This document shows positions 1-41,588 of a stretch of 64,000 nt of DNA, piece by piece. This DNA is from an uncultured Lachnospiraceae bacterium. Lineage in GTDB: Bacteria; Bacillota; Clostridia; Lachnospirales; Lachnospiraceae. Location: the NCBI GenBank assembly GCA_947628705.1, contig CANRAZ010000002.1, forward strand, positions 1,128-65,127, read 5' to 3'. Numbering within the stretch: position 1 is the stretch's first letter; every line of letters starts with the position of its first letter. A model generated the notes under the pieces. The model did not search any database. It saw only the letters and a list, made by a program, of their open reading frames with translations, and was not told where the DNA came from. The position numbers and the translations under genes are program-made.

Positions 1-521
1 GCAGCGTTGCCGTCAGCCACTGAAGCAAAGCCATAATTCAGCCCTTGAAGCGACTGAAAAATTGCAGAATGTTCACTGTCAACCGGAAGGAGCCTTACGC
101 CATACTCTTTTACTAACGGCATAATTATATGGCCTGCCGTAACCAGTGTTTCCTTATTGGCAAGCGCAACATCCTTTCCCGATTTAATAGCAGCAATCGT
201 CGGATGTATGCCGACCATGCCGACAATTGCCATTACAACGGTATCCACATCGGGAACAGAGGCGCAGTCAGCCAGTCCGAACAGTCCCTCATAGACGGTA
301 ACATCCGTGTCTGCAAGCTTAGTTCTAAGGTCTTTTGCCGCACCGAAGGAATTCATGCAGACATACCGGGGCTTAAACTCCCTTACCTGTTTTTCCATCA
401 AATCAACATTTTTGTCCGCAGTCAGCGCAATAACACTAAATTTATCAGGATTTTGTCTTACAATATCAAGCGTCTGAGTGCCGATTGAGCCTGTAGAGCC
501 AAAAACAGCAAGTTTTTTCAT
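1..521 (-). CDS. dxr: 1-deoxy-D-xylulose-5-phosphate reductoisomerase, 5' part (gene continues past window start)
   Basis: Absent from the ORF track because it is open to the window edge. The reverse complement of 459-521 reads MKKLAVFGSTGSIGTQTLDIV (GSTGSIG NADPH-binding N-terminus). The reverse complement of 61-120 reads PLVKEYGVRLLPVDSEHSAI (Dxr signature). A GGAGA RBS lies upstream of the ATG at 519-521. It follows cdsA as in the conserved uppS-cdsA-dxr block. Confidence 0.9.
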   Translation of the reverse strand, partial: MKKLAVFGSTGSIGTQTLDIVRQNPDKFSVIALTADKNVDLMEKQVREFKPRYVCMNSFGAAKDLRTKLADTDVTVYEGLFGLADCASVPDVDTVVMAIVGMVGIHPTIAAIKSGKDVALANKETLVTAGHIIMPLVKEYGVRLLPVDSEHSAIFQSLQGLNYGFASVADGNA

Positions 522-713
522 ACATTTTTCTCCATATATCAAAACATTTATTTCAGGAAATATTTCACGAAACAAGCCATAAGCATCAAAACATTAGCAA
601 TCGGCAAAATCAGCGCCTGAAGCCTTATATAGGATATGACAAAAATCGTACAAATATTCTGTTATCTTATTCATGCAAATATACTATTCACTGCATCGGA
701 ACTTATTATCTGC

Positions 714-9900: not shown

Positions 9901-12900
9901 AGCTTGAACCTGTATCAGGGAAATTGCCGTCAAATTTATTAAGCGTACCTATAGTAAGAACTTCACCGTTTTTCAGTAAGCCTTCCTTTGCCGCTTCCAT
10001 CATTACAGCGACCCAATCTATGTTAAACCTGTATGTAAAATACACATCTGCATTCCAAGGAAAATGTTCTCCGGAAACAGAAAACATCTCTTTTACCGCC
10101 TCGCCATAGCCTTTCAGTTCGGATTCATCAAGGTCGGTATAATTTTCATCCGCAGGAATGTAAACAATTTCTGAATCTGACGGTATTGTAAACCTGTACT
10201 CAGGATTATTATCCACACGTTCGTCCTTTGGATAAAGCTCGGTTTCCGTGCCGTTTTCCTCGACAAGATACTCTCTAATACGTTCAACCGTAGTGTGCTT
10301 CAGTATCAGTTCCGAAAGCTTCCTGTTAAGCTCGTCATCTGTAACAGCCTTTCCGTCAATCAGCGCATGAACATAAAAACTGTCCGTAGCATAAATAGGA
10401 GCATCGTTTTCATCACCTATGTTGCCTGTATGTACCTTCGCAGTGTAAACATTGGTTTCTGCATTAAAGCCTTTAACGCCGGTCGCCGGTTCAAGGAAGG
10501 CATTACCCATTATAGCCGCCCCTGCACTCACCCAGCTCTCGCTAGGACCTGCTATAGGCATTGTTTTTTTGCTTAACGGATGGCGTGCCGCCGAATACAT
10601 AGCCTTAACCGTAGGTACTGTATTCTTTACGGAAGGATCGGCGGAATATAGCGAAATCGACGAGCCGGCATCAACCTTGCCCGGATATGCAATTGCCGCC
10701 TGACTGTCTATTTCATAGTACCCTTTGTGATAAATTTCGCTGTCCGTTCGGAAGCTGACATTAACCTCGTTTTCTCCTAACAAAAGCGTATATGTTATCA
10801 CAAAATAAAGCTCGTTGGAGAGAGCCGTCCCGTCGGTCTTTGAGACTTCAAAAGCATACAGATTTCCGGTTAAATTCTGAAATTTTTCATTATCTGTTGT
10901 CTTTTCAGGAACTTCTACGCCCAAAGACAGCAGCTGATTTTTTCTTTCCTCCGCTGTATTACCCAAAGAGGATATGCTATAGCCTGTTCCCGGCACAGCT
11001 TTTTCATTTTCATATATCGTAACGAGTTTATTAGGATTGTCCTCGTCAAACAATGTGAGCCTGTTGTCACCGACCTGTATCTTGATATTCTCAACAGTCA
11101 CATAGGAGAGGAACTTGCTGAGAAGCGCCTGCGTTTTAGGGTCATCAGCATCAAAAAGATAATCAGGCGCTCCGCTTCCCGAAACAGCGCTTCCGGAAGT
11201 GTAATATTCCTTGACTCTGTTAATCTGGTCGACAAGGTAAACTTTTTTCTGACCCTGCGGGCCGACGTCCGCAGTTACCCGATAATCATTTTTATAATGA
11301 CCCTTTCCTTTGTCGCTTCCCGTCCACTCTTTTTTAAGTACCGGAGAGGCAGAATAACTGAAGCTCTTTAAGCTTGCAGAATAGGCTCTTCCATTATTGT
11401 TTATCGCCCTGTAGCTTCTCGCTGCCGCATTTTTCAGCTCTATTTTCAGCAATCCTCTAAGACCGTTATCTTCACTGTACTTTTTTATGTCAAAAATTCC
11501 GTTGTAGGCAACCGTCACGCTTCTTACTACACTATTCGCTTCATATCCGTTCTTTCTTGCAGTAAGACCATATATTGTTACCGTAAATCCGCGCTCCATA
11601 TCGCCGGAATATTCCAGCCTTACTTTTACGCTGTCATCTCCAAATTGGCTCCCTGCTACACTGCTCAGCGGACCATAAAACGCGTTATAGGGTGTAACGT
11701 CCTTTTCAACATGCCCGGTTGTTTTTGCTGTTTCAAAGTCACTTTCATCAAAAAGAACCGTATTATAATTTTCACCCGGTCCGCTATCATACGCAAATGA
11801 AACCTTCATGTCAGTAAGCGTAATATATTTAGCCGGAGAAAAGGCAAGTGTTTTACCGCTGTCGTCCTTAACCGTCGTCTGCGACATATTGTCGCTTATT
11901 TTATAGACTCCGGAAAAGCCTTTCTGACCGGCAAAAGTTGACGAAACAGTTGCAACAAACTTATTAAGTTCATTATCGGCATTATTTTCTGTAGAGACAT
12001 TCATTGTCTTACCGCTTATGCCGGGCACAACAGCACTTCCGCTTCCCACTACATCATAAACAGGAGCTTCAAGATGTCCGTCGTAAATCTGAAAATCTGC
12101 ATAATTATTATACGTAAGATTTCCGATATCACTTACAGAATAGTTAGGCATGGTTATATAACGGATCCTCAGTACGGTTTTATCACTGTTGCTATTAAGC
12201 ATATTCCTAATATAATATGACAGGTATCCGTCATAAAAAATCCATCTGGCTCCGCCGCTATTTCTCGAAATAGTTTCCAGGTATTTATTAGGAATTGCAT
12301 TTCCGGCATTGTCATAATACCACGAGGCTGACGCATAACTCCAACCGTCAGCAGGTACAGAATCAATATGAGGCGCTCCAGATATCTCTCCTTGGGTATA
12401 CGGTGTAGGTTTAACGGCGGCAAGATATATGTATCCGCCTTGGAAAACATTGGAAGAACTTCCTGACGTAACCAACATTCCGTTTTCGTCATATGCAGAA
12501 CCTCCCCAAGAATAGCCTGATGGAAGAACGTCATATAATGCTGCTTTGATGCTATCAATCGGAGCGGCAGTACCTGTACTCTGTCTCCACTTGTACCAGT
12601 CAATAAAAGCGGTCAGGTCAATAGACAAATCCCAGCGGATGCTGCCGTCCTCCTGGACAAATCCGTTTTTGTTCAGAACATACGCAGGTCCTTTACTGAG
12701 AGGATGTGAAATACTGCTTTTATATAGAGTGCAAGCATTTTCCACTGCTAAATATGTAGCAAAATTATAATTGTACGGTGACTTGTTTTCGACTGTATTT
12801 TCACCGTTTGGTCCCGTGCTCTCAATAACCTTGCGAAGGTATTTGCTATACGAAACGGAAGCATTGTAGCTGCCCTGATTTTCCGGGAGATTAAACATGT

Positions 12901-26518: not shown

Positions 26519-26659
26519 ACGATTTATATCCGGCAGCTGCGGCTTAATGTCCTGCGGCTGTCGCCATAATTAAATAAGGAATGCTTCCTGCCTGTAACCG
26601 CTTACGCCCGACTGCTCCGCTTTGCAGATTAAATCTGCTGCGGCGCACGTTAAGTACCG

Positions 26660-26698
26660 GCGGCGGGTTTTCCCCGCAGGAAACATTCCTTCTTTTTG
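26660..26698 (+). terminator. possible pyrBI terminator (two short hairpins plus a T-run)
   Basis: gcggg/cccgc at 26663-26677 and aggaa/ttcct at 26678-26690, then tcttttt. Confidence 0.4.
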
Positions 26699-26802
26699 TT
26701 GATAAAACCACTTTCAAAAATATATCAAACCACCGTCAAAAATATATCCTAACTGCTTTCTTTACTGAAGCAGCCCGTAAACGGCTGTTAATCCGTACTG
26801 TC

Positions 26803-27795
26803 TCACGGCTTTGAAATAATAATCTTACCGTCCTTAACCTCAAGCTTAACCCGATTTCCTGTAATTCCTATTTCCTCCAGAGCCTCTCTCGGGAGCTGCA
26901 GCCGTCCGACCCTGTCAAGAATTACATATTCCTCGTGACTAATACCGCCGTCTGCTCCGTATGCTCCTTCTGCTCCTTTTTCCGTCTCGTCCTCTGCAAA
27001 TGCCGCCGTTCCAACAGCCGTGTCCTGCCTGATTACCCTTTCACTGCTTGTTTTGCCGTCACGTATCATAATGACACGGTTGACCTTCTGTGCAAGGTTT
27101 ACGTCGTGCGTAACGATGACTATCGTCGTGCCGAGCTCTGTGTTGAGCTTTCTGAAAACCTCAAGGATCTGATCCGAGGTTCTCTGGTCAACGGAACCCG
27201 TAGGCTCATCGGCAAGCAGAAGCTTTGGATTGTTTGCAAGCGCGATTGCAATTGCAATTCTCTGCTGCTCGCCTCCTGACAGCTGATTGAGCTTTGAATT
27301 GATCCTGTGACCCATTCCGACCATTTCAAGCAGCGACAGCGCACGTTTACGCTTATCCTCCTTATTATTTGTAAAAAGCATAGGGAGCATTACATTTTCA
27401 ATTGCGGTCAGATAAGGGAAAAGGTTTCTGGCATTGTTCTGCCAGACAAAACCTACCGTCTCCTGTTTATACTGTACATATTCCTTTTCATTCAGCTTAA
27501 AAAGATCCTTGCCGTCAACATAAAGCTTTCCGGCTGACGGTCTGTCGAGACCGCCGATCATGTTAAGAAATGTAGACTTGCCTGAACCGGAGCTGCCAAT
27601 AATGGCAATAAACTCTCCTTTTTTTACAGAAAGCTCAAGTCCCTGAAGAGCAAGGACTTCCGTGTCCTTCGTTTTATAAATCTTAACCAGATTTTCGCAA
27701 AGTATCATCACGTCATCGGTAAGGAAATCTTCAAGCTCCTTATCAGTCGACGCCGTATAGGCAGACGTAAAAGCATTTGCACCTTCATCACTCAT
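26803..27795 (-). CDS. MacB/LolD-type ABC ATPase with a C-terminal SpoVT/AbrB-like domain
   Basis: Walker A GSSGSGKST, signature LSGGEQQR, Walker B LLLADEPTG, H-loop VTHD. The C-terminus YVILDRVGRLQLPREALEEIGITGNRVKLEVKDGKIIISKP resembles the AbrB N-domain. The ATG at 27793-27795 has GGAGGTG 8 nt upstream and overlaps the upstream stop. Confidence 0.9.
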   Translation of the reverse strand: MSDEGANAFTSAYTASTDKELEDFLTDDVMILCENLVKIYKTKDTEVLALQGLELSVKKGEFIAIIGSSGSGKSTFLNMIGGLDRPSAGKLYVDGKDLFKLNEKEYVQYKQETVGFVWQNNARNLFPYLTAIENVMLPMLFTNNKEDKRKRALSLLEMVGMGHRINSKLNQLSGGEQQRIAIAIALANNPKLLLADEPTGSVDQRTSDQILEVFRKLNTELGTTIVIVTHDVNLAQKVNRVIMIRDGKTSSERVIRQDTAVGTAAFAEDETEKGAEGAYGADGGISHEEYVILDRVGRLQLPREALEEIGITGNRVKLEVKDGKIIISKP

Positions 27796-28693
27796 TGCCT
27801 TCACCTCCGTTCAAGCCCTTCCGGGCGGATTCCGCACTTTCCTTAGAAGCTACATATGCAGGCTCTGTGCCTTCCTCAGAAGCCTCATGTGCAGGCTTTG
27901 TGCTTTCATCTGAAGCCTCATGCGCAGGCTCTTCGCTTTCCTTGGAAGCCTCTCCTTCCGTCTCCGGCTGTATATCAATATTTATATCGTAAGCTGCCGT
28001 TTCGCCGGTCAAATTGTTTTTATAGGACAGAATCTGTCCGTCAAGGATTTCATAAACCACGTCGCCGTATTCCATCATTTTCGGGTCATGCGTGGTCATT
28101 ACAATCGTAATGCCTTCCTTTGCTATCAGCTCCTTAAAGAGAGTGATTACCTTAAGGCTTGTGTAGGAATCAAGCTCGCCCGTCGGCTCATCCGCAAAGA
28201 TTACCTTCGGCTTATGGGCTATTGCTCTTGCAATTGCAACTCTTTGCTGTTCACCGCCCGACAGTTCCTCTGGCATATGCGAAGCTCTTTTTGTAAGATT
28301 AACCATGGCAAGACATTCCTTGACCCTCTCGTCTCTGTCGCCCTCGTAGCCCGAAATTCTAAGAGAATATTCTACATTCTGGTATGCGCTCATTACCGGT
28401 ATAAGCGCGACAGACTGAAATATGAAGCCAATCTCATTTCTTCTTATCTTTTCAAGCTGCTTTTCAGTGTAGTCGGTTATGTCAACGCCGTCAAAAACAA
28501 GCGTGCCGTCCGTCTGCTTGTCAAGGCAGCCGATAATATTGAGTAGCGTCGTTTTACCTGAACCCGACCTGCCCTTTAAGATCGTAAGAGAATTTTTAGG
28601 AACCGCAATATCAATTCCTTTAAGGGCATAAAAGTCATTTCCGGCAATTTTAAAACATCTTTTTATTCCTTCTGCTTTTATAATTTCACTCAT
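27788..28693 (-). CDS. MacB/LolD-type ABC ATPase with an acidic repeat tail
   Basis: Walker A GRSGSGKTT, LSGGEQQRVAIARA, IFADEPTG, TTHD. The C-terminal tail consists of 11-aa repeats (EASKESEEPAH / EASDESTKPAH / EASEEGTEPAY / VASKESAESAR). Confidence 0.9.
   Translation of the reverse strand: MSEIIKAEGIKRCFKIAGNDFYALKGIDIAVPKNSLTILKGRSGSGKTTLLNIIGCLDKQTDGTLVFDGVDITDYTEKQLEKIRRNEIGFIFQSVALIPVMSAYQNVEYSLRISGYEGDRDERVKECLAMVNLTKRASHMPEELSGGEQQRVAIARAIAHKPKVIFADEPTGELDSYTSLKVITLFKELIAKEGITIVMTTHDPKMMEYGDVVYEILDGQILSYKNNLTGETAAYDINIDIQPETEGEASKESEEPAHEASDESTKPAHEASEEGTEPAYVASKESAESARKGLNGGEGNE
27812..27960 (-). repeat. 33-bp tandem repeat, about 4 units, coding
   Basis: Plus-strand units lie at 27845-27877, 27878-27910 and 27911-27943, with degenerate flanking units. 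All are in frame. Confidence 0.85.
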
Positions 28694-28705
28694 ATCGCTA
28701 CCTCA

Positions 28706-31552
28706 CTAATCCTCTCCAAGCTTAAGAGCCTGCGCTATCTTCATTCTTGACAGCAGCCTGCCGATTACGGCAAAGCAGATCACAAGCATCAGAGCCACGC
28801 ACACGCCAAGCCCAAGCATATCCCTTGCCGACGTAATTACAATTGTGTCAAGCGTGGAGTGCTTTGGCGAGTATGCAAGCTGAATCAAAGGAACAAACAT
28901 ATGTGCTGAAAGGATTCCGGCAAGGACACCGTAAATAATCGGTATGACCGAACCGAACAGATGCTCGTAAACTAGCATCTGAATTATTTCCTTCATTGAA
29001 AGTCCCATCGCTCTGTAAATGCCGAAAAGCAGTTCTCTTGACTTTATGGAGGTTACCCAGTAAATAAGGAAGCCGATAAGGCTGAGCACCAAAATAACCA
29101 GAAATGCGAGCGTCAGCATTCCGCTTGTTACCTGGAAGAAAGGCTGCTCCTTCATCTCGTCCGTCTCGTAAACGGAATCCTTAAAGGTGGTATAGACAAG
29201 ATTGTTCTTTTCAGCAAAATCATAGAAAAATTCCGTGCCGTCCTTTGCGTCGATCCAAATCTGATAAGGCTCCGGACTGGAAAAAGTACTGTAGGTTCTG
29301 TGGGCGGTATCATAGTTTGCAACTACAAGATAATTATCCGTGTAGGTCTCCTTTCCGTCCTTGCCCTCGGACAAAACAGAGTCCTCATAGCCCGGCCATG
29401 CGTCAACAATGGCAACTACGGTGAGATTAAATACCGGCTTGTTAGTGCCGATAATCTGGTCGGTTCTCTGCAGATTGAACGTGTCCCCAACCTTAAGCCC
29501 TGCAACCTCGGCGTAATTTCTGGAAATAATTGCGCCATAAGGCTCTTTTGCAAGCGCATTAAGGTAATAATACCAGTGAAATTTAGTAACGCCCTCCGGC
29601 ATATACGCAATCTTGCCGAATTCATCAGTAACCACAGCCATAAAGAGCGTGCAATCCTTTTTTATTTCATTTCCTATTTTTACTCCTGCCTTATCATCGT
29701 AAATAACCTTAGTAATTCCGTTTGTCTTGTCTCTTATCTGGTTGTAAACTGTAAAATCAGGCTCGTAATACACAAGCTCCGTTTCATTTGACATTCCGCT
29801 GAAAAGTATGTCGCTGTTGTTTTCCCATTCCTGCATTAAAACAAGGTCGGCGCCGTTTTCATAATTAAGCCTTCTTTCCTCATTGTCATTAATCGAACGC
29901 GCCGTCGTGGCGTTAAAAATACCCAACGCAAGAGTGAGAACAAGGAATACGATAATAAAGCTTTGCTTCCTGATATTTTTATTTATCTGCATGAAAGCGG
30001 CGAAGGTGGCAGGCTTCCATTTCCTTGCTCCAATTTTATATATAAGAGTCGTCAACAGAGGTATTATCCTCAGGAATATAAGCGCAATCGACAAAATAAA
30101 AATTGTAGAGCTGAAATAAAGCATCGGGTCTATCGTGCTGCCCTCCGTGATATTGCTTATTATCACTTCCCTCTGCTTTTCGTAGGAATAAAAACCGTAA
30201 AGAGAAACCGCCAGCAGGATAAAGTCAAGATATACCATCTGCCAAAGAGGCTTTTTGTGTTTCTTCTTGTTTGCTTTTTGCTCAACGATAGAGAAATTCG
30301 CATACTTGAATACCGGAATAGTCATAAATATGATCGAAGCGGCAGTTGCAGCCAGTGCAAACAGTATCGACGTAAACGTTATCTTAACTTCAATAGTGGT
30401 CAGGACGGAAAATTCAAGGAATGACCTTGTGGCTCCGAACAGCGTACAGAACAGATAACCGAGAGGGATTCCTAAAATCAAAGCCGCAAAGGAAATGATC
30501 CCGCTCTGCAAAAAATATGCTGAAATGAGCTGGCGTTTGCTTACGCCCCTGCTTTTAAGCATTGCAATTTCGCTCTGTTCAATGGAAATAATCTGGTTGG
30601 AAACCATAAATATGAAAACACAGAGCAGAATAATAACGGGAGTCTGGAAAACCCACATTGTTACGTTTGTCTTATTTGTTCCGCTTCTGTAGCTGAGGAA
30701 AGGCTCCTCGTAAGGAAACTCATAAGAGTAAAGACCTGTTTTTTTGCAATCCTCTCTGATTTTATTATCAGAAATAATAAAATCGTTGATCTCGTCCATT
30801 TTGATCGACCTGTAATCGAAAACGGCATAATGGTCGCAGAAAACCGTGAACGGCATTTTGCCCTCAATAAAAAGCCTGTCAAAATTTTCAGGGGAAATAA
30901 AAAGGTTTGCGTTATAGCTTAACGGATCGTTCACCCAATAAAGATCATTCTTTTCCGCCGCGGTAAAAACTCCGGCAACAACAAAGGTCTGGCTGAATCC
31001 CGGAATTTTCAGCTCGTCGCCGATAATAAGGCTGGAATTGATCATCATGTTTTCATTAATGATACATTCAATCCTGTCTGAACTCCCGTCATTACCGTAC
31101 ATGCTGCCAAACACGATTTTTGCATGATCCTCAATACCGTACATTGAATTTACGGCAAGCGAAATCTTTGAAGAAATGACGTCAGATCTGACATCGACCC
31201 TTTCCGCATCAATTTCAGAGGTGGAAAGTATCGTTAATTTTTCCACTGCTTCGTGCTTAAACTGCGAAGCAAGGGATTCGGCGCCCGTTTTGTAGTCTGG
31301 GAACATATCGGTACCCAGATTATACTTGTCTTTGCTTGTCTGTGAAAAATGACCGCTGACAATAGCCATTGAAGGATAGCGGTTATTATCAATCAGACTC
31401 TGTTCAAGCTCATCAGTAAGAGTTTTCTGCAGCGCCGCATGAGTATACATAGGATTGCATGCAGCAATCGCAATAAGAAGCAACGCTCCGGCAAAGAGAC
31501 AGGACACAAGCCATTTTTTATTCATTATCTTTTGCCATATAAATCTAAACAT
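28706..31552 (-). CDS. fused double FtsX-domain ABC permease (948 aa)
   Basis: Two repeats of TM, about 250-aa extracytoplasmic domain, then FtsX helices (..AMLKSRGVSKRQL.. and ..YRAMGLSMKEII..). RBS GGAGAGG. Confidence 0.88.
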   Translation of the reverse strand: MFRFIWQKIMNKKWLVSCLFAGALLLIAIAACNPMYTHAALQKTLTDELEQSLIDNNRYPSMAIVSGHFSQTSKDKYNLGTDMFPDYKTGAESLASQFKHEAVEKLTILSTSEIDAERVDVRSDVISSKISLAVNSMYGIEDHAKIVFGSMYGNDGSSDRIECIINENMMINSSLIIGDELKIPGFSQTFVVAGVFTAAEKNDLYWVNDPLSYNANLFISPENFDRLFIEGKMPFTVFCDHYAVFDYRSIKMDEINDFIISDNKIREDCKKTGLYSYEFPYEEPFLSYRSGTNKTNVTMWVFQTPVIILLCVFIFMVSNQIISIEQSEIAMLKSRGVSKRQLISAYFLQSGIISFAALILGIPLGYLFCTLFGATRSFLEFSVLTTIEVKITFTSILFALAATAASIIFMTIPVFKYANFSIVEQKANKKKHKKPLWQMVYLDFILLAVSLYGFYSYEKQREVIISNITEGSTIDPMLYFSSTIFILSIALIFLRIIPLLTTLIYKIGARKWKPATFAAFMQINKNIRKQSFIIVFLVLTLALGIFNATTARSINDNEERRLNYENGADLVLMQEWENNSDILFSGMSNETELVYYEPDFTVYNQIRDKTNGITKVIYDDKAGVKIGNEIKKDCTLFMAVVTDEFGKIAYMPEGVTKFHWYYYLNALAKEPYGAIISRNYAEVAGLKVGDTFNLQRTDQIIGTNKPVFNLTVVAIVDAWPGYEDSVLSEGKDGKETYTDNYLVVANYDTAHRTYSTFSSPEPYQIWIDAKDGTEFFYDFAEKNNLVYTTFKDSVYETDEMKEQPFFQVTSGMLTLAFLVILVLSLIGFLIYWVTSIKSRELLFGIYRAMGLSMKEIIQMLVYEHLFGSVIPIIYGVLAGILSAHMFVPLIQLAYSPKHSTLDTIVITSARDMLGLGVCVALMLVICFAVIGRLLSRMKIAQALKLGED

Positions 31553-31570
31553 CTATCCTCTCTCCTCTCC

Positions 31571-33715
31571 TTATCTCTTTATGCAGACGTCGCCTGCTTC
31601 AAGACCTGCAGTTATCCAACTGACGTTTTCCGCATTAGTTGCATCGGTTGCGACCTGAACATACCTTGTAATTACATTATCTCCTGACTGAAGCAGAACG
31701 TATTTTTTATTTGTTGCGGTTTCATTAAAGATAAATGACGAATCCAGCAGCAAAACATTATCCGCCTCTATATCGACAGCCTCTACGGATAAATAAACCG
31801 GGTCTATTTTAGAGATATCCTCCTGATTGGAAAGCCTGACTCCAATAAGACCCCATTTACTGTAAGGCATTACATTCTTTGAAGATACTACCAATGCGTC
31901 GCTCTCGGTTGCAGTCCCTGAAACGCCTGACTTCAAAGTAACCTTATTGCCAAAATTCAGAAAGACATCATTCAGGTCCTCTTGGTCCGCCGGCTGTTCT
32001 TCCCCGGAATCGCTGTCGTCAACTGCCATGGCGTTTTCATTAACAAAAAACATCGCCGTATCTGATAAAGCAATAACCGCATAGTTAAAATTCTTTTCAA
32101 TGCCTGTTCCGTCAATTATTGTTGTAGAAGCATTAAAAAAGCCTGTTGCCGGCGCATTAACGGTAAACGCTCCGTTTTCCTTACAGTAGTCATATACGGT
32201 AATGACTTCGTTAACGTCCTCCGCCTGCTCTTTCAAATCATTTATTACATTCTCTTTTTCCTGTTTCAAATCCTCAAGCTCATATTCTGCTGCCTTCTTA
32301 TCTCCAACCTTTGATGTTGTGTCAACGGTATTTTGCTTGGACGTAATAAGGTCGTCATAATAATCAGTCTGTGTGGACACGGATTCCAAAAGCTCCTCGT
32401 GCTGCGAAACCAGCTCCTCATATTCTTCCTCGCTGATATCCGGAACAACGGATAATATCGGCGTTCCCTCTTCCACATAAATACCGGACGTTTTCGGTAT
32501 AAACACTTCCGAAACCACAGCATCATAATTAAACATTAAATTCGTCTGCTCTGCGGAGCGGAGGCTAACCGCTTCAAACTTGGCTTCATGCTTATAATTG
32601 CTTATATAGGCTTCCGCTGTCGACATTTCCTTGTTCCATGAAGAAGCATCTTCAGCGAAGTACACCTGATCTCCCTCTTCAAGCCCTGATTTTATCTCGG
32701 TATAGTAATCGCTTGACATGCCTACCATGACTTCCGCCTTCTCGTTGCCGCCGTTTTCGGAAGCGACAAGGCAGTAGTAGGACTCTCCGCCATTTTCCGT
32801 TTTCAGTGCGGAATTCGGCACATAGAGAACATTATCAACTGTTTTGGAAACCGTTTTTATCACGCAGGTAGTACCAAAAGCGACGTCCTCCGGAAGACCT
32901 TCAACAACTGCTCTTGAGTACGGCTTCTCGCCTTGGTTTTCGAGTATGTACAGCTCGTCGCTTGAATATGTCAGAAATGAGACGTCCGTGTAATCCACCC
33001 CGTCGATCTGTACGGTAATCGACTCAAGACCGTCAAAAAAGGTACTTGGATTATAGTCGAATTTAACTATTTTCTGGCTTGTGTCAGCTATTACAAACGC
33101 AATATCGCCGACATCTACATAAGAACCGTTTTCAATGTTGTTCATGTAAACGACGGTGCCGTCAAACGGCGCGGTCAGCACGGATTTTTCCAATGCCTCC
33201 TGTGCAGCGTCGTACTGCGACTGCAAAACAGCCTCCTGACTGGCTCTTTCCGAATTAAAAGAATTATTTTCAAGCTCCTTTTCCTTAATGGAAAGCTCAT
33301 AGAGGTCTCTTTCAAAACCGGACATGCCGCCGGCGGAGGCTTTCATCTCCGCAAGCTCGGCATCATGCTGCTGCTTATACAGTTCCGTAAGCGTCTTGTA
33401 TCTTGTAAGCTCCTTTTCTTTGTTTGCAAGATTTTCCTCCGCCAGCTTATCTATTCTGTATATAACGTCTCCTGCCTTAACCTCATCTCCCGGTAAAACA
33501 GGCACGTCATAAATACTGCCGCCGTAGCCAAACGTCACTGTTTCCGTGGCAGGCGCAAGAGTTCCAACAAAAATTTTTTCATCAGAAACCGTTCCTCTTT
33601 CCACAGTAAAGTAAAGCTCAACCGTTCTTGCCGGCTCAAGCAGCTCCGGAATATCGGAACCGCAGCCTGTCAAAAACAGCACTGCCACTAAAAGAACAGA
33701 AAAAATTTTTTTCAT
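31571..33715 (-). CDS. lipoprotein with two tandem membrane-fusion-protein (HlyD/MacA-like) modules (714 aa)
   Basis: Lipobox LFLTGCGS. Each half has a lipoyl-like segment, a long coiled coil, an 'APxxG' segment (LTAPFDGTV; VNAPATGFF) and a terminal G-L-x-x-G-D (SGLEEGDQV; AGLEAGDVC). Confidence 0.85.
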   Translation of the reverse strand: MKKIFSVLLVAVLFLTGCGSDIPELLEPARTVELYFTVERGTVSDEKIFVGTLAPATETVTFGYGGSIYDVPVLPGDEVKAGDVIYRIDKLAEENLANKEKELTRYKTLTELYKQQHDAELAEMKASAGGMSGFERDLYELSIKEKELENNSFNSERASQEAVLQSQYDAAQEALEKSVLTAPFDGTVVYMNNIENGSYVDVGDIAFVIADTSQKIVKFDYNPSTFFDGLESITVQIDGVDYTDVSFLTYSSDELYILENQGEKPYSRAVVEGLPEDVAFGTTCVIKTVSKTVDNVLYVPNSALKTENGGESYYCLVASENGGNEKAEVMVGMSSDYYTEIKSGLEEGDQVYFAEDASSWNKEMSTAEAYISNYKHEAKFEAVSLRSAEQTNLMFNYDAVVSEVFIPKTSGIYVEEGTPILSVVPDISEEEYEELVSQHEELLESVSTQTDYYDDLITSKQNTVDTTSKVGDKKAAEYELEDLKQEKENVINDLKEQAEDVNEVITVYDYCKENGAFTVNAPATGFFNASTTIIDGTGIEKNFNYAVIALSDTAMFFVNENAMAVDDSDSGEEQPADQEDLNDVFLNFGNKVTLKSGVSGTATESDALVVSSKNVMPYSKWGLIGVRLSNQEDISKIDPVYLSVEAVDIEADNVLLLDSSFIFNETATNKKYVLLQSGDNVITRYVQVATDATNAENVSWITAGLEAGDVCIKR

Positions 33716-33743
33716 TTCTTACCTCCTCTTAATTAAGGAAAAG

Positions 33744-34868
33744 CTATCTGACTATCTTATCTCCCGGTTTAAGTCCGCTTTTGACCTCGACCGTATCACT
33801 TCCTACTACTCCGACTTCAATTTCCTGAATAAACCGCGAGCCGTCCTCTCCAACCATATAAACCATATTCTTATCGCCTGAGGTAATAAGAGCCTCCGCC
33901 GGAATCACGGTCACGTTTTCAACCCTGCTGAGTGGAATGACAATGCGGGAATAATTCAGACTTAGACCCTCCGTCTGCGGAAAATCGTCCTTAACTTCAA
34001 ATTTTATCTGATAAGCGTCTGAATTTTCGTTGACAGGCTCTATTGATTCGCATACTACTGTGTAGCTGCCGTACACCGTCTGAGTTGAGTGGCCCATATT
34101 TCCCTCGCTGTCCTCGACTATTTCATTGATCTTGCCTGAATATTCAACAGAATACTCCTCGCCGACGTCAAAATACCCGGTCTTATCGGTTGTAGCGGTA
34201 ACATAAAGATTACTCTGCGATACCGTTGCCACCGGCAGACCCTTCATGTAAGAGCCTCCCATCTCGGCGAGATAGGTTACGACGCCGTCAAAAGGAGCAT
34301 ATATGCGGCAGGCATCTAAATTAGCCTGTGCCTCTTCAAGCTGTTTTTTTACGACCTCCAACGCCTTTTTGTTGTTATCAAGTTCAACATTATAGCTTGA
34401 CAGGACATCGCTTTCATATGTCAGTCCATAATTGGCATATACAGTCTTCTTTTCATCTTCAATGTCGATTAATCCCGAATAATAATCTATATGAGCTAAA
34501 TAGCTGTCATACGCCTTTTGATACTCGTTAACAGTGTTCCGAAGCTCATCGCTTTTTGCCTCGAGAAGCAAATCTCCCTTTTTAACCTCTGCTCCAACCT
34601 CGGTATATACCTTTTCGACAACAAAATCTCCGTATTCAAAGAACATCTGCTCTGCGTCACTGTAATTAACCGTAACATTAAGCAGGAAATCATCCTCTGC
34701 GTCTCCGGTAACTACAGTGTAGGTCGTCATGGAAACCTCGTCCGCGCTTTGGGCAATAGGAGCGACCCTATTTTCTTCTCTTACAGGCAGCAGGCTGCAG
34801 CCTGAACCCATTGCGAGCGCGGCACAAAGCGTAAAAGCCAAAATAACCTTTCTGCGATTTCCTTTCAT
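33744..34868 (-). CDS. membrane-fusion (HlyD/MacA-like) lipoprotein (374 aa)
   Basis: Lipobox MGSGCS. Also GAEVKKGDLLLE, a coiled coil, IYAPFDGVV and a terminal SGLKPGDKIV. RBS AAGGAGG. Confidence 0.85.
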   Translation of the reverse strand: MKGNRRKVILAFTLCAALAMGSGCSLLPVREENRVAPIAQSADEVSMTTYTVVTGDAEDDFLLNVTVNYSDAEQMFFEYGDFVVEKVYTEVGAEVKKGDLLLEAKSDELRNTVNEYQKAYDSYLAHIDYYSGLIDIEDEKKTVYANYGLTYESDVLSSYNVELDNNKKALEVVKKQLEEAQANLDACRIYAPFDGVVTYLAEMGGSYMKGLPVATVSQSNLYVTATTDKTGYFDVGEEYSVEYSGKINEIVEDSEGNMGHSTQTVYGSYTVVCESIEPVNENSDAYQIKFEVKDDFPQTEGLSLNYSRIVIPLSRVENVTVIPAEALITSGDKNMVYMVGEDGSRFIQEIEVGVVGSDTVEVKSGLKPGDKIVR

Positions 34869-34895: not shown

Positions 34896-36563
34896 TCAAA
34901 AAAGTCCGTCTATCCTTCCGTCAATTACGTCTACGTGCTCCGCCGCCGGAACCTTAGGCAGTCCGGGCATCGTCATAATATTGCCGGTAAGAACCACTAT
35001 AAATCCCGCTCCTGCGCTGACATAGATATCGGATACCGAAACGGTAAATCCCTCCGGTCTTCCGAGAAGGGAAGGATTGTCCGAAAACGAATACTGAGTT
35101 TTTGCGATGCAGACCGGAAATCTCGCAAAGCCGTCGTCTTCCAGCTTTTTCAGCTTATTTCTCGCCTCCGGGCTGTAGCTTACCGAGGACGCCCCGTAAA
35201 TTTCCCTGCATACAGTTTCGATTTTTTCTTCAACAGGCATTTCCGACGGATAAAGAGGTTCAAACAAGGAAGCGTCTTCGTCTAATGTCTGAAGAACCTT
35301 ATGCGCAAGCTCCAGTCCGCCCTCGCCGCCTTTTTCCCAAACATCGGAAAGCGCAAACCGGCAGCCGTGGGATTCGCAAAATCCCTTTACATAATCAAGC
35401 TCCGCATCGGTATCGTCTGAAAAACGGTTCAAAGTAACGACAACAGGGACCTTATATTTATTCAAATTTTCAATGTGTTTTTCAAGATTTACAATGCCCT
35501 TTTTAAGCGCGTTGAGATTTTCGGTTTTAAGTCCGTCCTTCGGCACTCCGCCGTTATATTTAAGCGCTCTTACCGTAGCGACAAGAACAACCGCATCCGG
35601 CTTGAGCCCTCCCTGCCTGCATTTTATGTCAAAAAATTTTTCGGCTCCAAGATCAGCTCCGAAGCCTGCCTCCGTAACAACTACGTCGCAAAGCTTTAAG
35701 GCTGTTTTGGTTGCGATAAGCGAATTGCAGCCATGTGCGATATTGGCAAACGGACCCCCGTGAACAATTACCGGAGTGTTTTCAACAGTCTGGACAAGGT
35801 TAGGCTTAAAAGCGTCTTTTAAAAGAGCCGCCATGGCTCCCACAGCCTTAAGGTCGGCTGCCGTAACCGGCTTTCCGTCATAGGTGTAGGCAACTATTAT
35901 TTTTGAAAGTCTTGATTTTAAATCTTCAAAATCAGATGCAAGGCAGAGGATCGCCATTATTTCAGAAGCAACGGTTATAATGAAATGGTCTTCTCTAACC
36001 TGACCGTTTGCCTTGGAGCCGAGACCGATAACAATGTCTCTGAGCGCCCTGTCGTTCATGTCAAGACACCGTTTCCACGTTACCTGTTTAGGGTCTATGT
36101 TAAGAATGTTCCCCTGATGAATGTGATTGTCAAGCATGGCGGCAAGCAGATTGTTGGCAGATGTGATTGCATGGAAGTCACCCGTAAAATGCAGGTTAAG
36201 GTCTTCCATAGGAACGACCTGCGCATAGCCTCCGCCGGCAGCGCCTCCTTTTACGCCAAAGCACGGTCCCAGAGAAGGTTCTCTAAGCACTATCGTTGAT
36301 TTTACCTTAAGCCTCCCCAGAGCTTCCCCCAAACCAACGGTAACGGTCGTTTTTCCTTCTCCTGCCGGAGTAGGATTTATTGCAGTTACCAGAACCAGCT
36401 TTCCGTCCTTGTAAGATTTAATTTTATCTATAAATTCCTCGGAAAATTTTGCCTTGTATTTTCCGTAAAGCTCAATATCTTCTTCATCTGCACCAAGCAT
36501 TTCCGCTATTTTTTTGATATGTAGAAGCTCGGCCTCCTGAGCAATCTTAATATCCGTTTTCAC
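34896..36563 (-). CDS. fhs: formate--tetrahydrofolate ligase
   Basis: 555 aa. [11 protein letters not shown]..., [10 protein letters not shown]-loop, and [19 protein letters not shown] start with a GGAGGGG RBS. Confidence 0.95.
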
Positions 36564-37562: not shown

Positions 37563-38492
37563 TTACTCCACATAGCTTCTTATAAGCATCATATTTCCTG
37601 AAAGCGTATACTCTCCGAAGCCGTAAGGGATAATGAAGTGGTCGCCCTTTTTCACCGGCGTTCCGTTTACTTTGCCCTCTCCTTCAAGTATGCTGTAGTT
37701 CTGGAAATAATCTTCCATGTCAAAAGTAACTTCTCCGTTCACCTCAAGCTTTTCAACCGAATAGTAATCACAGGAAATAAAATGCGTTATTTTACAGCCT
37801 CCAAGGTCGCTTACGACGGGCTCGGTCATCTCCGGCGTAAAAGGAGCTTTGATAACGTCAATGCTCTGTTTTACATGAAGCTGTCTCGGCTTTCCGTCCT
37901 GAAGCCTGTCATAGTCATAAACTCGGTAGGTTATGTCGCTGTTCTGCTGGGTTTCCAGAATAACGGTCCCGCCCTTTATCGCATGCAGGCAGCCCGGATT
38001 GATTTGAAAGAAATCTCCCTTTTTAACGGGAATCTCCCTGATAAATTCCTTCCATCTGGCATTTTTTATCATGTCGGCGAGCTCGTCGCTGTCCTTCGCA
38101 TTGTGACCGATAACGATAGTAGTGTTTTCTTCACAGTCAAGTATGTACCAGCACTCGGTCTTTCCAAGAGAGCCGTTTTCGTTAACCCTTGCATAGCTGT
38201 CGTCAGGATGTACCTGAATGCTCAAATCGTCCTTCGCGTCGATAATCTTAATAAGAAGCGGAAACCTGTCGCCCTCAAGATTACCGAAAAGCTCTCTGTG
38301 GGAATCCCAAAGCTCGCTCAGACTTTTGCCTGCATATTCTCCGTTCTTAACTATGCAGTCTCCGTTCGGGTGAGCGCTTATTGCCCAGCATTCGCCGGTA
38401 TTGTCACCCGGAATATCATAGCCGAAGTCCCTCAGCTTGCTTCCGCCCCAGATCATCTGTTTAAAAACAGGATTCAAAAAAATAATATCCAT
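37563..38492 (-). CDS. manA: class I mannose-6-phosphate isomerase
   Basis: MDIIFLNPVFKQMIWGGSKL, ECWAISAHPNG, LSIQVHPDD and PGCLHAI motifs typical of Firmicute ManA. ATG at 38490-38492. Confidence 0.88.
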   Translation of the reverse strand: MDIIFLNPVFKQMIWGGSKLRDFGYDIPGDNTGECWAISAHPNGDCIVKNGEYAGKSLSELWDSHRELFGNLEGDRFPLLIKIIDAKDDLSIQVHPDDSYARVNENGSLGKTECWYILDCEENTTIVIGHNAKDSDELADMIKNARWKEFIREIPVKKGDFFQINPGCLHAIKGGTVILETQQNSDITYRVYDYDRLQDGKPRQLHVKQSIDVIKAPFTPEMTEPVVSDLGGCKITHFISCDYYSVEKLEVNGEVTFDMEDYFQNYSILEGEGKVNGTPVKKGDHFIIPYGFGEYTLSGNMMLIRSYVE

Positions 38493-38517
38493 ATTTTCTT
38501 CCTCATTTTCTTTAATG

Positions 38518-39759
38518 TTATTCTTCACCGAATTTAATATCAGCGCCGTACCATGCGTTAAACATCGCTTCAATAATTCCGGGATATTCGCAGACGTTCG
38601 TGCCTCTTCTTATAAGTCCGAACGTTTCACCCTCATAAAAAGCGTTGTTATCCCACCACATTATCGGAACCTTGGCTTCAGCGGCTTTTTCTGCAAAATA
38701 CTGTGTGCATGCGATCCTGTCCTCGAGATTACCGTTTTTGGACATACAGCCGAACTCCCCTATCACGCACGCTATTCCGTTTTCGTGCAGAACAGACGAT
38801 ATGCCTGAAAAAAGATTGTCTATATCTCTCGTATCGTGAGAGTTCCCACGCCATTTATCCGTGCCGTAGATATTCAGGGCGAAGTCGTACGGAAGGTAGG
38901 CGTGTACCGAAAGAATAACTCTTTCGTCATCAGGCATTTTATAATGTTTCCAGACGTCTGAGTTTGAGGTCGCCGCATAGCAGGGTACCATCAAAAACCT
39001 CGTTGCATTGTTGCCGCCCAGTCCTCTTACCGTAGTCACAAAATCATTGCCAAGCTTATTGACGACGCTCTGCGAACGGTAATTTCCGTTCCAATCATCC
39101 TCGACCCTCGGCTCATTCATCGCTTCAAATACCAGACGTTCATCATAATCTGCAAAATAGTTCCCAATCTGCTCCCACATTCTGCAAAGCTTCTCTGAAA
39201 CCTGCGGATAATCCGCCTCTGTAGGCTTAAGCCAGTCCGTTTCATGGTGAGTGTTTATTATGACAAATAATCCCTCGTCAATAGCCCAATCGACGATCTG
39301 CTTCACGCGTTCCAAAAACGCTTCGTCTATGTTATTGTTTGAATCCACGAAATTGTACCATGTGATCGGGATCCGAAGCGTGGTAAATCCGTAATCTGCG
39401 ACCGCTTTTATCAACCCCTGCGTCGTTTCCGGATTTCCCCAGCTGGTTTCCTGAGCAATCGGGGACTGTCCCTCTCCGCCGGTCGCATCAAGGGTGTTTC
39501 CGAGATTCCACCCCAGACCGAGATTGGCAGCAAATTCTATTGCAGTCATCTGGTCAAAGTTATAATCATAGGCCCTTTTTTTAATTATGCCGTAAACAGC
39601 GCTTTCCCTTACGACAGTACTGCTTTCCTCAGGAAGTTCTTCCATGTTCTCCCCCGGCCTGTTTAGATCCGGGTCAGTATTCGGATCCGGCTTCCTGCCG
39701 CACGAAGCACATGCGGCAAGGAGACAGATCATAATAAATACTGCTATTAATCTTTTCAT
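38518..39759 (-). CDS. GH5 endo-beta-1,4-glycanase lipoprotein
   Basis: Lipobox LLAACASC. GWNLGNTLDA, TLRIPITW, FEAMNEP (acid/base), SVHAYLPYDF and VIGEFG (nucleophile). Confidence 0.85.
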   Translation of the reverse strand: MKRLIAVFIMICLLAACASCGRKPDPNTDPDLNRPGENMEELPEESSTVVRESAVYGIIKKRAYDYNFDQMTAIEFAANLGLGWNLGNTLDATGGEGQSPIAQETSWGNPETTQGLIKAVADYGFTTLRIPITWYNFVDSNNNIDEAFLERVKQIVDWAIDEGLFVIINTHHETDWLKPTEADYPQVSEKLCRMWEQIGNYFADYDERLVFEAMNEPRVEDDWNGNYRSQSVVNKLGNDFVTTVRGLGGNNATRFLMVPCYAATSNSDVWKHYKMPDDERVILSVHAYLPYDFALNIYGTDKWRGNSHDTRDIDNLFSGISSVLHENGIACVIGEFGCMSKNGNLEDRIACTQYFAEKAAEAKVPIMWWDNNAFYEGETFGLIRRGTNVCEYPGIIEAMFNAWYGADIKFGEE

Positions 39760-39863
39760 TTATATACCCTTTATTTCAAGAAAAGGAATTTTATCTTTTC
39801 TATTTTGCCTCAATTGTTTGCCGAAGCCTTTTTTATGTGTTCAAAATAAAAGCACGGGCGTAA

Positions 39864-41588
39864 TTATTTTGCAAGCTCCATGAGAGCCGCCGTAAGAGCC
39901 GCAAGCTTTTCGTCGGCGTCCTCGAAGCTGCTTCCCTTTACGCCGATATAAAATTTGATTTTAGGTTCTGTGCCGGAAGGTCTCACGCAGACCCACGCAT
40001 CGCCGTTAAGATCAAAGTAAAGCACGTTGGATTTTCTGAGACCTGTAGGCTTTACTTCACCTGTTTCAAGATTCGTGACCGTGTCTTTGGAATAGTCTCT
40101 GAAAGAAACCACCTTATAGCCGCCAAGCTCCTTCGGAGGATTTGAACGAATTGCCTCCATCATGCTCTTTATCTTCTCTGCACCCTCAATTCCCTTAAGG
40201 GTAATGGTCTCAAGACCTTCTCTGAAGAAGCCGTACTTTTTGTAGATCTCCATCATCTGATCCCAAAGGCTGAGACCCTTTGTGTAATAGTAAGCAGCAG
40301 CCTCGCAAAGCTCCATGACCGCAACAATGGCATCTTTGTCGCGCGCATGCGTACCGACCAGACAGCCATAGCTCTCTTCAAAACCGAATTCAAAGGTTCC
40401 GTGACCGGTTTGCTCGGCGATTTTAATAAGCTCTCCGATGAACTTAAAGCCGGTCAGACATTCCTTAAGCTCGACTCCGTAGGCCTCAGCCACCTTATCA
40501 GCCATATTCGTTGAAACAATTGTCTTAACAATAAAGCTGTCGTCCTTAAGCTCATTCTTTGCCTTTTTCATGCTGAGAAGATATTCACAGATAACCATTC
40601 CCGACATATTTCCCGTAAAAGACATATACTCGCCTGTCGTACTGTCCTTAGCATAGACGCCAAGCCTGTCAGCATCTGGGTCGGTAGCAAGAACAAGGTC
40701 GGCTCCAACCTCGTCCGCAAGCTTAAGAGCAAGCTCAAACGCGCTCTTATTTTCCGGGTTAGGGCTAACTACCGTAGGGAAGTTTCCGTCAGGCTTTTCC
40801 TGTTCGGGAACGACATATACATTTTCAAAACCGATTTCCTTAAGAATCCTTCTTGCCGGTATATTTCCCGTTCCGTGAAGCGGAGTGTAAACAATTTTAA
40901 GAGTCTTTCCGACTTCCCTCACAAGCTCAGGCTGTACGATAAGCTTCTTAAGCTCCTCCATATATCTGTCGTCAATTTCTTTTCCTATAACGTGATAAAG
41001 ACCGGCAGCCTCTGCATCGGCGCGGCTCATAATTTTAACCATGTTCCAATCAGAAACAGCATTTACCTCGTCAATGATTTCAGTATCCTTAGGAGGCGTG
41101 ATCTGCGCTCCGTCTTCCCAGTAAACCTTGTAGCCGTTATATTCGGCAGGGTTATGGCTTGCAGTAACAACTATGCCTGCAATGCAGCCCAGTTCGCGAA
41201 GAGCAAACGAAAGCTCAGGAGTCGGTCTGAGCGATTCAAAACGGTATGCCTTAATGCCGTTTGCACAAAGACACAGTGCAGCCTCCTCAGAAAATTCGAT
41301 TGACATATTTCTTGAGTCGTATGCGATTGCAACGCCTCTGTCCTGTCCGCCTTCTTTGATAATGAAGTTGGCAAGACCCTGAGTTGCCTTTCTTACCGTG
41401 TAAAGGTTCATTCTGTTCGTGCCGGCTCCGATTATTCCTCTAAGACCGCCCGTACCGAACTCAAGCTCACGGTAAAATCTTTCTTTAATCTCCTTCTCAT
41501 CGTTTTCGATGCTCTTAAGCTCTTTCTTTGTTTCGGCGTCGAAGTAATCGTTTTCGCACCAAAACCTGTAGGTTTCCATGTAATCCAT
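39864..41588 (-). CDS. alpha-D-phosphohexomutase (PgcA-type phosphoglucomutase/phosphomannomutase)
   Basis: ELEFGTGGLRGIIGAGTNRMN, active-site TASHNPAEYNGYKV, and TDPDADR. 574 aa. Confidence 0.9.
   Translation of the reverse strand: MDYMETYRFWCENDYFDAETKKELKSIENDEKEIKERFYRELEFGTGGLRGIIGAGTNRMNLYTVRKATQGLANFIIKEGGQDRGVAIAYDSRNMSIEFSEEAALCLCANGIKAYRFESLRPTPELSFALRELGCIAGIVVTASHNPAEYNGYKVYWEDGAQITPPKDTEIIDEVNAVSDWNMVKIMSRADAEAAGLYHVIGKEIDDRYMEELKKLIVQPELVREVGKTLKIVYTPLHGTGNIPARRILKEIGFENVYVVPEQEKPDGNFPTVVSPNPENKSAFELALKLADEVGADLVLATDPDADRLGVYAKDSTTGEYMSFTGNMSGMVICEYLLSMKKAKNELKDDSFIVKTIVSTNMADKVAEAYGVELKECLTGFKFIGELIKIAEQTGHGTFEFGFEESYGCLVGTHARDKDAIVAVMELCEAAAYYYTKGLSLWDQMMEIYKKYGFFREGLETITLKGIEGAEKIKSMMEAIRSNPPKELGGYKVVSFRDYSKDTVTNLETGEVKPTGLRKSNVLYFDLNGDAWVCVRPSGTEPKIKFYIGVKGSSFEDADEKLAALTAALMELAK

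Follow-up and report, generated by a model that had tools for sequence, protein, structure and literature searches.

MacAB-like pumps set a six-fold ring of adaptors on a two-fold transporter, and the inequivalent positions within that ring are hard to dissect when all protomers are identical. A gene cassette from an uncultured Lachnospiraceae bacterium raises the question of whether a machine of this type can be built from parts that all differ in sequence. The cassette lies in a stretch of 64,000 nucleotides (contig CANRAZ010000002.1 of assembly GCA_947628705.1, positions 1,128 to 65,127 of the forward strand), which we call the window and whose own numbering is used below. Calling of open reading frames (ORFs) places it at 26803-34868, as five tightly packed ORFs that are all on the minus strand. 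From the first gene to the last, with the two modules of the second gene also given separately, these are:

33744-34868, minus strand: M1, a 374-aa lipoprotein of the membrane fusion protein (MFP, adaptor) type, first gene of the cassette
31571-33715, minus strand: double MFP of 714 aa, the M2-M3 fusion
32600-33715, minus strand: M2 module, residues 1-372 of the 714-aa protein
31571-32599, minus strand: M3 module, residues 373-714 of the 714-aa protein
28706-31552, minus strand: permease of 948 aa, double FtsX
27788-28693, minus strand: ATPase A, 301 aa
26803-27795, minus strand: ATPase B, 330 aa from the ATG at 27795

Gaps of 28, 18 and 12 nt separate M1 from the gene of the 714-aa protein, the latter from the permease gene and the permease gene from that of ATPase A, and the ATPase A and ATPase B genes overlap by 8 nt (27788-27795, ATGAGTGA). 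The longest ORF for ATPase B begins at a GTG at position 27804; the ATG at 27795 has GGAGGTG in front of it. A preliminary description of the window, drawn up from the sequence alone, had reported five co-directional genes with an 8-nt overlap and gaps of 12-28 nt, and its coordinates and arithmetic are all correct. It had read them as a MacB-type efflux cassette with two different ATPases, one fused permease and three distinct adaptor modules. The analysis presented here supports that reading overall; the efflux role and the 2 x 3 adaptor stoichiometry that came with it are treated below as hypotheses. We lean towards the explanation that the cassette encodes a chromosomal, vertically inherited ATP-binding cassette (ABC) machine of type VII from monoderm Clostridia, in which each normally repeated subunit is a distinct sequence.

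Conservation of the cassette as a unit

A scan of the GTDB species genomes returned at least 580 pattern-matched stretches that encode a relative of the permease. The examined set consists of the best 80 of these (at least 580) loci and four metagenomic loci, designated below by L numbers, in which ORFs were called and from which profiles were built. In all 75 loci with at least 3.6 kb of upstream sequence the adaptor modules follow the fixed order M1-M2-M3, encoded as three genes in 48 of them and as M1 plus a fused M2-M3 in the other 27, the layout of the window. Wherever the flank allows, the adaptors are followed by a permease of about 940 aa, then by ATPase A (about 225-250 aa) and then by ATPase B (about 295-430 aa). 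The preliminary description had treated the five genes as one unit, and they are kept as such in every one of the 75 loci with enough flank. Since the same order recurs in 84 independent loci, this gene set goes far beyond chance.

Members of the family are widespread among Lachnospiraceae, Oscillospiraceae and related Clostridia of the gut and rumen, and they carry generic annotations only; one related locus (L083) belongs to a cultured isolate, Lachnospiraceae bacterium V9D3004. Identities to the window were tabulated for the five closest loci (L001-L008). They amount to 77-84% for the ATPases, 53-64% for the permease, 29-38% for M1, 27-45% for M2 and 26-30% for M3. Within the window's clade, conservation drops from the cytoplasm outward.

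Three adaptor modules, two of them fused

M1 has a signal peptide and a cysteine at the lipobox position, while M2 has a canonical lipobox (LTGC) and a helical hairpin at residues 90-176. Both match the RND_mfp model TIGR01730, M1 with E = 1.6e-26 (93.1 bits) and M2 over residues 36-351 with E = 1.6e-25 (89.8 bits), scores that lie slightly below the curated cut-off of 94.9 bits. M1 also matches HlyD_D23 (E = 5e-7), and the HlyD_D23 and Biotin_lipoyl_2 models give further matches in M1 and the N-terminal half of the 714-aa protein. M1 orthologues were found in 72 loci, with a lipobox in 61 of these.

In the window, M3, the C-terminal half of the 714-aa protein, lacks a separate signal peptide and contains a second helical hairpin at residues 429-514. 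The preliminary description had proposed that this protein consists of two complete MFP modules and that profile hidden Markov models (HMMs) should recognise them. Such models did recover M1 and the N-terminal half, but residues 373-714 have no adaptor match in Pfam or NCBIfam. BLASTP of the C-terminal half against the N-terminal half and M1 gave only marginal, membrane-proximal matches (E = 0.095 and 0.44). These blanks in stock HMM and BLASTP searches suggested that the C-terminal half is not an MFP, a candidate reading that was overturned by family-specific profiles.

Only three full-length homologues of the 714-aa protein were found, with 34-37% identity and aligned over the entire length. 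Outside the window's clade, in more distant loci, the adaptors are encoded upstream of the permease gene by three separate genes of roughly 345-370, 375 and 385 aa. Profile comparison with hhalign shows the N-terminal half to be orthologous to the free-standing second MFP gene (E = 4.3e-75) and the C-terminal half to the free-standing third one (E = 4.6e-52, 309 columns). The profile of the C-terminal half aligns end to end with those of M1 (E = 8.5e-27), M2 (E = 1.1e-27) and the N-terminal half (E = 1.2e-25), and free-standing M3 proteins match TIGR01730 directly, at E = 4e-20 to 7e-9. A profile composed of C-terminal halves and free-standing M3 proteins, with the window sequence placed first, was searched against the PDB. 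It matched the solved MacA 4dk0 over its full length (E = 1.2e-26) and E. coli MacA (E = 1.2e-20), as well as AcrA, EmrA, Spr0693 and the engineered TriA-TriB tandem fusion 6vej (E = 3e-24, a 695-aa chain). In the AlphaFold2 (AF2) model of the 714-aa protein, a pattern of strand, long hairpin, strand and barrel occurs twice. Foldseek, run with the whole model and leaving the matching half unspecified, placed MacA first (9qgy_G and 5nik_D, E about 1e-15; 2.8e-15 for 5nik_D). Given that the profiles of the C-terminal half match free-standing M3, M1, M2 and MacA, the 714-aa protein joins two complete adaptor modules in one natural fusion, and its second module has lost the signal peptide. The proposal of two modules therefore stands, the C-terminal half being missed by stock libraries and recovered as a full module by family profiles.

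M1, M2 and free-standing M3 carry a signal peptide and a lipobox in most loci. The three modules are clearly distinct, with profile cross-scores of 64-119 bits among them against about 400 bits for self, and no part of the cassette evolves faster than M3 (20-30% identity among fused-type loci). The hairpin regions of the three have lengths of about 85 (M1), 92-106 (M2) and 93-96 (M3) residues, a similarity that is compatible with a single tube. In two loci, L073 (6415-7899) and L078 (6366-7895), M2 is 494-509 aa long and has an insertion of ~135-140 residues within the hairpin region, which thereby spans 230-243 residues versus about 99 in related loci. This insertion may be an extra domain.

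A fused permease with two extracytoplasmic domains

Two stretches of the permease match the FtsX model (PF02687; E = 4.1e-20). Hydropathy and the AF2 model agree on 10 transmembrane (TM) helices; the model was obtained with 102 homologues and has a mean predicted local distance difference test score (pLDDT) of 90.4 and a predicted template modelling score (pTM) of 0.84. It contains two alpha/beta extracytoplasmic domains (ECDs) and, between them, a helical linker pair, with the following approximate limits:

30710-31384, minus strand: ECD1, between TM1 and TM2, residues ~57-281
Residues ~431-530, minus strand: linker TM5-6
29144-29854, minus strand: ECD2, between TM7 and TM8, residues ~567-803

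The two halves of the fused permease that had been proposed earlier, each with an extracytoplasmic and an FtsX part, are thus recovered as two FtsX stretches and two ECDs. Foldseek found E. coli YbbP as the best match of the model (9ge6_A, E = 6.5e-19, 969 aligned columns). Further matches were to BceB, MacB, Spr0695, LolC/E, HrtB and YtrF, and also to the isolated MacB periplasmic domain 3ftj (E = 2.3e-4) and to the LolE domain 5udf. When a profile of the permease was searched against PDB sequences, the best match was LolC, restricted to the FtsX region (E = 6.6e-7), and YbbP was absent at E <= 0.01. The two halves of the permease share 21% identity and are no longer similar by BLAST (E = 0.12). 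Judged from its model, the permease is a fused pseudo-dimeric type VII ABC permease of the MacB/FtsX superfamily; judged from the profile search, its family is remote in sequence from every solved protein. The term MacB-type, applied earlier to the whole cassette, fits the superfamily and the LolD/MacB-like nucleotide-binding domains (NBDs), but not the topology of the permease, which is YbbP-like (10 TM) and involves no MacB dimer.

Two different ATPases and their C-terminal tails

The two ATPases have the following motifs and C-terminal features:

ATPase A: Walker A at residues 41-48, signature at 144-151, Walker B at 164-170, H-loop at 200-203
ATPase B: Walker A at residues 67-74, signature at 172-179, Walker B at 192-198, H-loop at 228-231
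27839-27952, minus strand: 33-nt (11-aa) tandem repeat, 3.5 copies with 81% match, encoding the tail of ATPase A
26806-26937, minus strand: putative SpoVT/AbrB-like domain (PF04014) of ATPase B, residues 287-330, 44 residues following a linker

The NBD of ATPase A extends from residue 1 to about residue 225 (ABC_tran, E = 1.2e-30), and ATPase B matches ABC_tran with E = 1e-33 and the LolD model with E = 1.4e-71. The two proteins are 34% identical, and both contain Walker A, the Q-loop, the signature LSGGEQQR, Walker B (ADEP) and the H-loop. The best NCBIfam models for both are LolD, MacB, FtsE and DevA; as all scores fall under the equivalog cut-offs, neither ATPase is an orthologue of any of these. 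That neither is degenerate, as the preliminary description had maintained, holds for the window and for 77 orthologous A/B pairs, where both subunits keep Walker A, the signature (L/M)SGGEQQR, Walker B (DEPT) and the H-loop (THD) intact. A single ORF in the A position (L066) has no SGG signature and was probably mis-called.

Each ATPase had also been credited with a different C-terminal appendage, and here the two proteins part: the tail of ATPase B is conserved, whereas that of ATPase A is not. The latter is acidic and of low complexity (residues 236-301). It is absent from the ATPase A orthologues, which have 224-262 aa, and is therefore a lineage-specific low-complexity expansion situated just before the A/B overlap. 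The window's ATPase B tail matches PF04014 (SpoVT/AbrB, MazE) with E = 2.7e-4 and 21.3 bits, below the gathering cut-off of 24.7 bits. All six ATPase B tails tested match this model (E = 1.7e-5 to 2.8e-3), one of them reaching 25.1 bits, and the tail is conserved family-wide and in a single-adaptor relative, L088, described below. A phmmer search of the representative library with the 45-aa tail gave 141 matches, nearly all at the extreme C-terminus of fragments or of proteins of at most 430 aa. This is what ATPase B orthologues and their fragments would give, and no new context emerged. The SpoVT/AbrB fold normally dimerises, yet just one copy of the tail would be expected per transporter. 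On an ABC ATPase, the apparent presence of a fold that binds DNA or dimerises is puzzling; our literature search found no paper on an ABC ATPase with an AbrB tail.

A plausible stepwise origin

The relative L088 (6988-12403) encodes a permease of 29% identity, a single adaptor gene (331 aa) and two ATPases, with an AbrB-like tail on B. Its layout is possibly ancestral. Because this single-MFP relative already has two ATPases and the AbrB tail, a stepwise path is plausible. The layouts suggest that a fused permease with two ATPases came first, followed by triplication of the adaptor and then by fusion of M2 and M3 in the window's clade. In a neighbour-joining tree of the permeases the fused forms make up one major clade with L056 outside it, which implies one or two events. 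Fusion is favoured over fission on the sole argument that free-standing M3 keeps its signal peptide. Relatives more distant than L088 (22-24% identity) have other layouts. In one such locus (L085, 1315-18910), the permease relative (22% identity) adjoins a type I restriction-modification system, beyond which come two unannotated proteins of ~800-900 aa, two ATPases and a two-component system.

Genomic context

The cassette is preceded in the window by a gene of one-carbon metabolism, and two further regions of the window were annotated:

34896-36563, minus strand: fhs (formate-tetrahydrofolate ligase), co-directional context gene that ends 27 nt before M1
37563-41588, minus strand: upstream of fhs and of a divergent haloacid dehalogenase (HAD) hydrolase, genes for mannose-6-phosphate isomerase, a cellulase/mannanase-type glycoside hydrolase of family 5 (GH5) and phosphoglucomutase/phosphomannomutase, which look like a small mannan/glucan utilisation cluster
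3956-15103, minus strand: ORF of 3715 aa with seven FctA/Spy0128-like isopeptide domains, DUF7601, DUF5979 and a collagen-binding domain, presumably a surface protein of the pilin or adhesin type

A search for promoter-like sites placed the best one at 36625-36597, upstream of fhs. As the 27-nt gap is too short for a terminator plus a promoter, the cassette may be co-transcribed with fhs, a central one-carbon metabolism gene. Formate-tetrahydrofolate ligase is also encoded immediately upstream in L001-L003, and an ORF of 555-611 aa occupies this place in most loci of the fused-type clade (L001-L025). On the downstream side, pyrB and pyrI lie convergent to the cassette, and DUF4867, nrdR, comM, dprA and topA come next. 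The synteny fhs, cassette, pyrIB, DUF4867, nrdR, comM, dprA is kept among genomes whose adaptors are 34-37% identical, and this persistence despite diverged adaptors favours vertical inheritance over a mobile resistance module. An origin by a mobile element or horizontal transfer was considered and ruled out by the strict synteny with fhs, pyrBI, nrdR, comM and dprA.

No regulator, peptide or glycolipid genes were found among the neighbours to ~8 kb downstream and ~7 kb upstream, and the scanned neighbours include no lantibiotic genes either, as the preliminary description had noted. A histidine kinase or response regulator was likewise absent among the scanned neighbours, and Rfam gave 0 matches in the whole window. 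The 284-nt spacer between convergent pyrI and ATPase B (26519-26802) has a folding energy of -92 kcal/mol (z = -3.56 versus shuffles). It probably contains bidirectional terminators, and no convincing small ORF was found in it. Directly downstream of ATPase B, three loci from the Eubacterium-like clade have a gene for a polysaccharide deacetylase (PF01522; L030, 13512-14570; L032, 13582-14649; L049, 13583-14473), and an AI-2E family transporter gene stands upstream of M1 in two scanned loci (L032 and L058). These deacetylase and AI-2E neighbours are a weak hint of a link to the cell wall. No family-wide conserved neighbour was found in the loci sampled.

Comparison with known systems

The E. 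coli complex YbbAP(-TesA) (PDB 9GE6-9GE8) has in common with the cassette a single fused 10-TM permease, two MacB-like ECDs, a TM5-6 linker and separate NBDs. The ECDs of its 10-TM permease lie between TM1-2 and TM7-8 and take part in mechanotransmission, and the complex contains two copies of one ATPase, YbbA, and no adaptor (PMC12646458). It thus differs from the cassette, which has two ATPases and three adaptor modules, in using one ATPase twice, in having no MFP and in its hydrolase partner TesA. The permease halves (about 21% identity) are also more diverged than the YbbP domains, for which an identity of roughly 26% is reported (PMC12646458).

With MacAB-TolC (E. coli and A. actinomycetemcomitans; 5NIK, 4DK0) the cassette shares the adaptor fold of lipoyl, hairpin, beta-barrel and membrane-proximal segments, NBDs of the LolD/MacB clade and the MacB-type TM and ECD folds. 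That system is a diderm one, with a homodimeric 4-TM MacB that fuses NBD and transmembrane domain, a MacA homohexamer and the exit duct TolC, whereas the cassette belongs to a monoderm, in which no outer-membrane partner is expected, and encodes a fused permease, separate unlike NBDs and three adaptor paralogues. Spr0693-0694-0695 of S. pneumoniae and YknWXYZ of Bacillus are likewise monoderm systems with an anchored, hexamer-forming MFP and a MacB-type ABC transporter (PMC5768738; PMC8277102), but they have one MFP, one ATPase and one 4-TM permease, used as homo-oligomers, and are linked to peptide resistance. A YknW-type accessory protein, present in YknWXYZ, is absent from the cassette.

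More than one adaptor paralogue per assembly has a precedent in TriABC-OpmH of P. aeruginosa, whose structure was obtained with an engineered TriA-TriB fusion, 6VEJ (PMC8277102). TriABC-OpmH is a diderm system built on a proton-driven trimer of the resistance-nodulation-division (RND) type, TriC, with two adaptors and a man-made fusion; the cassette has a natural fusion and an ABC transporter. LolCDE is, like the cassette, an asymmetric type VII system with two unlike permease halves, and the NBDs of the cassette score best against LolD models. LolCDE, a lipoprotein extractor of diderms, differs in having its permease halves LolC and LolE as separate proteins, in using LolD twice and in having no adaptors. 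BceAB has a 10-TM permease with a single ECD (TM7-8) and an adjacent BceRS-like two-component system, in contrast to the two large ECDs of the cassette permease. The cassette therefore combines a YbbP-like fused permease, unlike halves as in LolCE, adaptors like MacA, Spr0693 and YknX, and multiple adaptors as in TriAB. In the literature we found no description of three adaptors with two NBDs and a fused FtsX permease, or of the family. DevBCA, another type VII system with a MacA-like adaptor, is an exporter.

A proposed heteromeric machine and its alternatives

In the machine that we favour, ATPases A and B would form a heterodimer that sits on the permease's two different coupling sites and binds two ATP. 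When this dimer closes, the movement would be relayed by the stalk helices TM1/2 and TM7/8 to both ECDs, by mechanotransmission comparable to that of MacB, LolCDE and YbbAP. The three lipid-anchored adaptors would assemble together, most simply as (M1-M2-M3) x 2, which would give a hexameric MacA-like ring and a hairpin tube over the permease. MacA, YknX and Spr0693, the Gram-positive adaptors included, are hexamers (PMC8277102), and M2 and M3, as they are covalently fused, would be neighbours at a ratio of 1:1. The tube could then take up a substrate at the outer leaflet or the extracytoplasmic face, and the substrate would be pushed through it and across the wall zone. The cassette keeps its synteny with housekeeping genes, has no regulator beside it and occurs in hundreds of species, which suggests that its role is constitutive, in the envelope or in export, and not that of an acquired module for drug resistance. 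The most complete form of this proposal, a fully heteromeric machine with two of each adaptor in one ring, an A/B heterodimer, a constitutive function in envelope export of Clostridia and a regulatory or dimerising tail on ATPase B, is put forward tentatively, its parts together being rather less probable than the general explanation. If it is true, a MacAB-like pump would have a sequence dedicated to each of its symmetry-inequivalent positions, with M2-M3 as a natural fusion of tandem adaptors.

Several observations weigh against the favoured machine. Two unlike ECDs would put each paralogue of an (M1M2M3)2 ring in two environments; as the ECDs are unlike and the ring is two-fold repeated, the idea of one paralogue per inequivalent position is weakened. 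For the 714-aa protein, AF2 gave a model of no more than moderate quality (pLDDT 64.5). As for covariation of hairpin lengths among M1, M2 and M3, a possible sign of co-assembly, the lengths are nearly constant and confounded by phylogeny, and only L077 is short in all three. The fast evolution of M3 could reflect relaxed constraint. Lastly, the housekeeping argument is context-based, and the neighbours differ in other clades.

Adaptor sharing and exchange occur among RND pumps, and on that precedent M1, M2 and M3 might each homo-oligomerise and serve one transporter as exchangeable adaptors for different substrates or conditions, an arrangement in keeping with their strong divergence (64-119 versus about 400 bits). 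We judge this distinctly unlikely. All three modules are kept in fixed order in 75 of 75 loci, module loss was seen in no locus except the far more distant single-MFP relative, and the proximity at 1:1 that is enforced by the M2-M3 fusion in 27 loci is hard to square with separate homo-oligomers. It is less probable still that M3 is a decaying duplicate without adaptor function, which would leave a system with effectively two adaptors. M3 does show the lowest conservation in the cassette (20-30% identity among fused-type loci) and goes undetected by Pfam and NCBIfam in the window genome, but it is full length, with all MFP segments alignable (~300 columns), in 75 of 75 loci, whether fused or free-standing, and frameshifts or truncations are absent. 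The free-standing form moreover keeps a lipoprotein signal in most genomes and is matched by TIGR01730 at the E-values given above (4e-20 to 7e-9).

As to function, YbbP, the best structural match of the permease, belongs to a lipid-extracting complex (PMC12646458). The cassette might accordingly encode an extractor or mechanotransducer like LolCDE, YbbAP-TesA or FtsEX, in which the ATP-driven motion of the ECDs serves a partner that would receive a lipid or lipoprotein or be activated, the adaptors forming a scaffold in the wall zone. The constitutive, housekeeping appearance of the context and the polysaccharide deacetylase gene directly downstream in sampled loci of the Eubacterium-like clade would agree with this role. 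It is nevertheless unlikely in our estimation: YbbAP, LolCDE and FtsEX work without MFP adaptors, no partner enzyme is conserved across the family, and the characterised type VII systems with a MacA-like adaptor are all exporters (MacAB, Spr0693-0695, YknXYZ; PMC8277102). We are similarly doubtful about a module for resistance to antimicrobial peptides, bacteriocins or detergents in the manner of Spr0693-0695, YknWXYZ or BceAB, even though the closest characterised Gram-positive systems that join an MFP to a MacB-like transporter protect against peptides (PMC5768738; PMC8277102) and Foldseek and profile matches to Spr0695, Spr0693 and BceB/PsdB were obtained. There is no adjacent two-component system and no immunity, bacteriocin or lantibiotic gene, the strict vertical synteny is with core metabolism genes and not an accessory or mobile context, and the permease has two large ECDs, unlike BceB.

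Implications

A heteromeric machine as favoured here would encode its adaptor positions, its permease halves and its ATP sites separately, so that each position could be mutated alone, with two of the adaptors covalently linked. The family could thus show how symmetric pumps become fully asymmetric. Its function is a question for a large group of gut and rumen commensals, and the cultured isolate V9D3004 (L083) makes experiments feasible.

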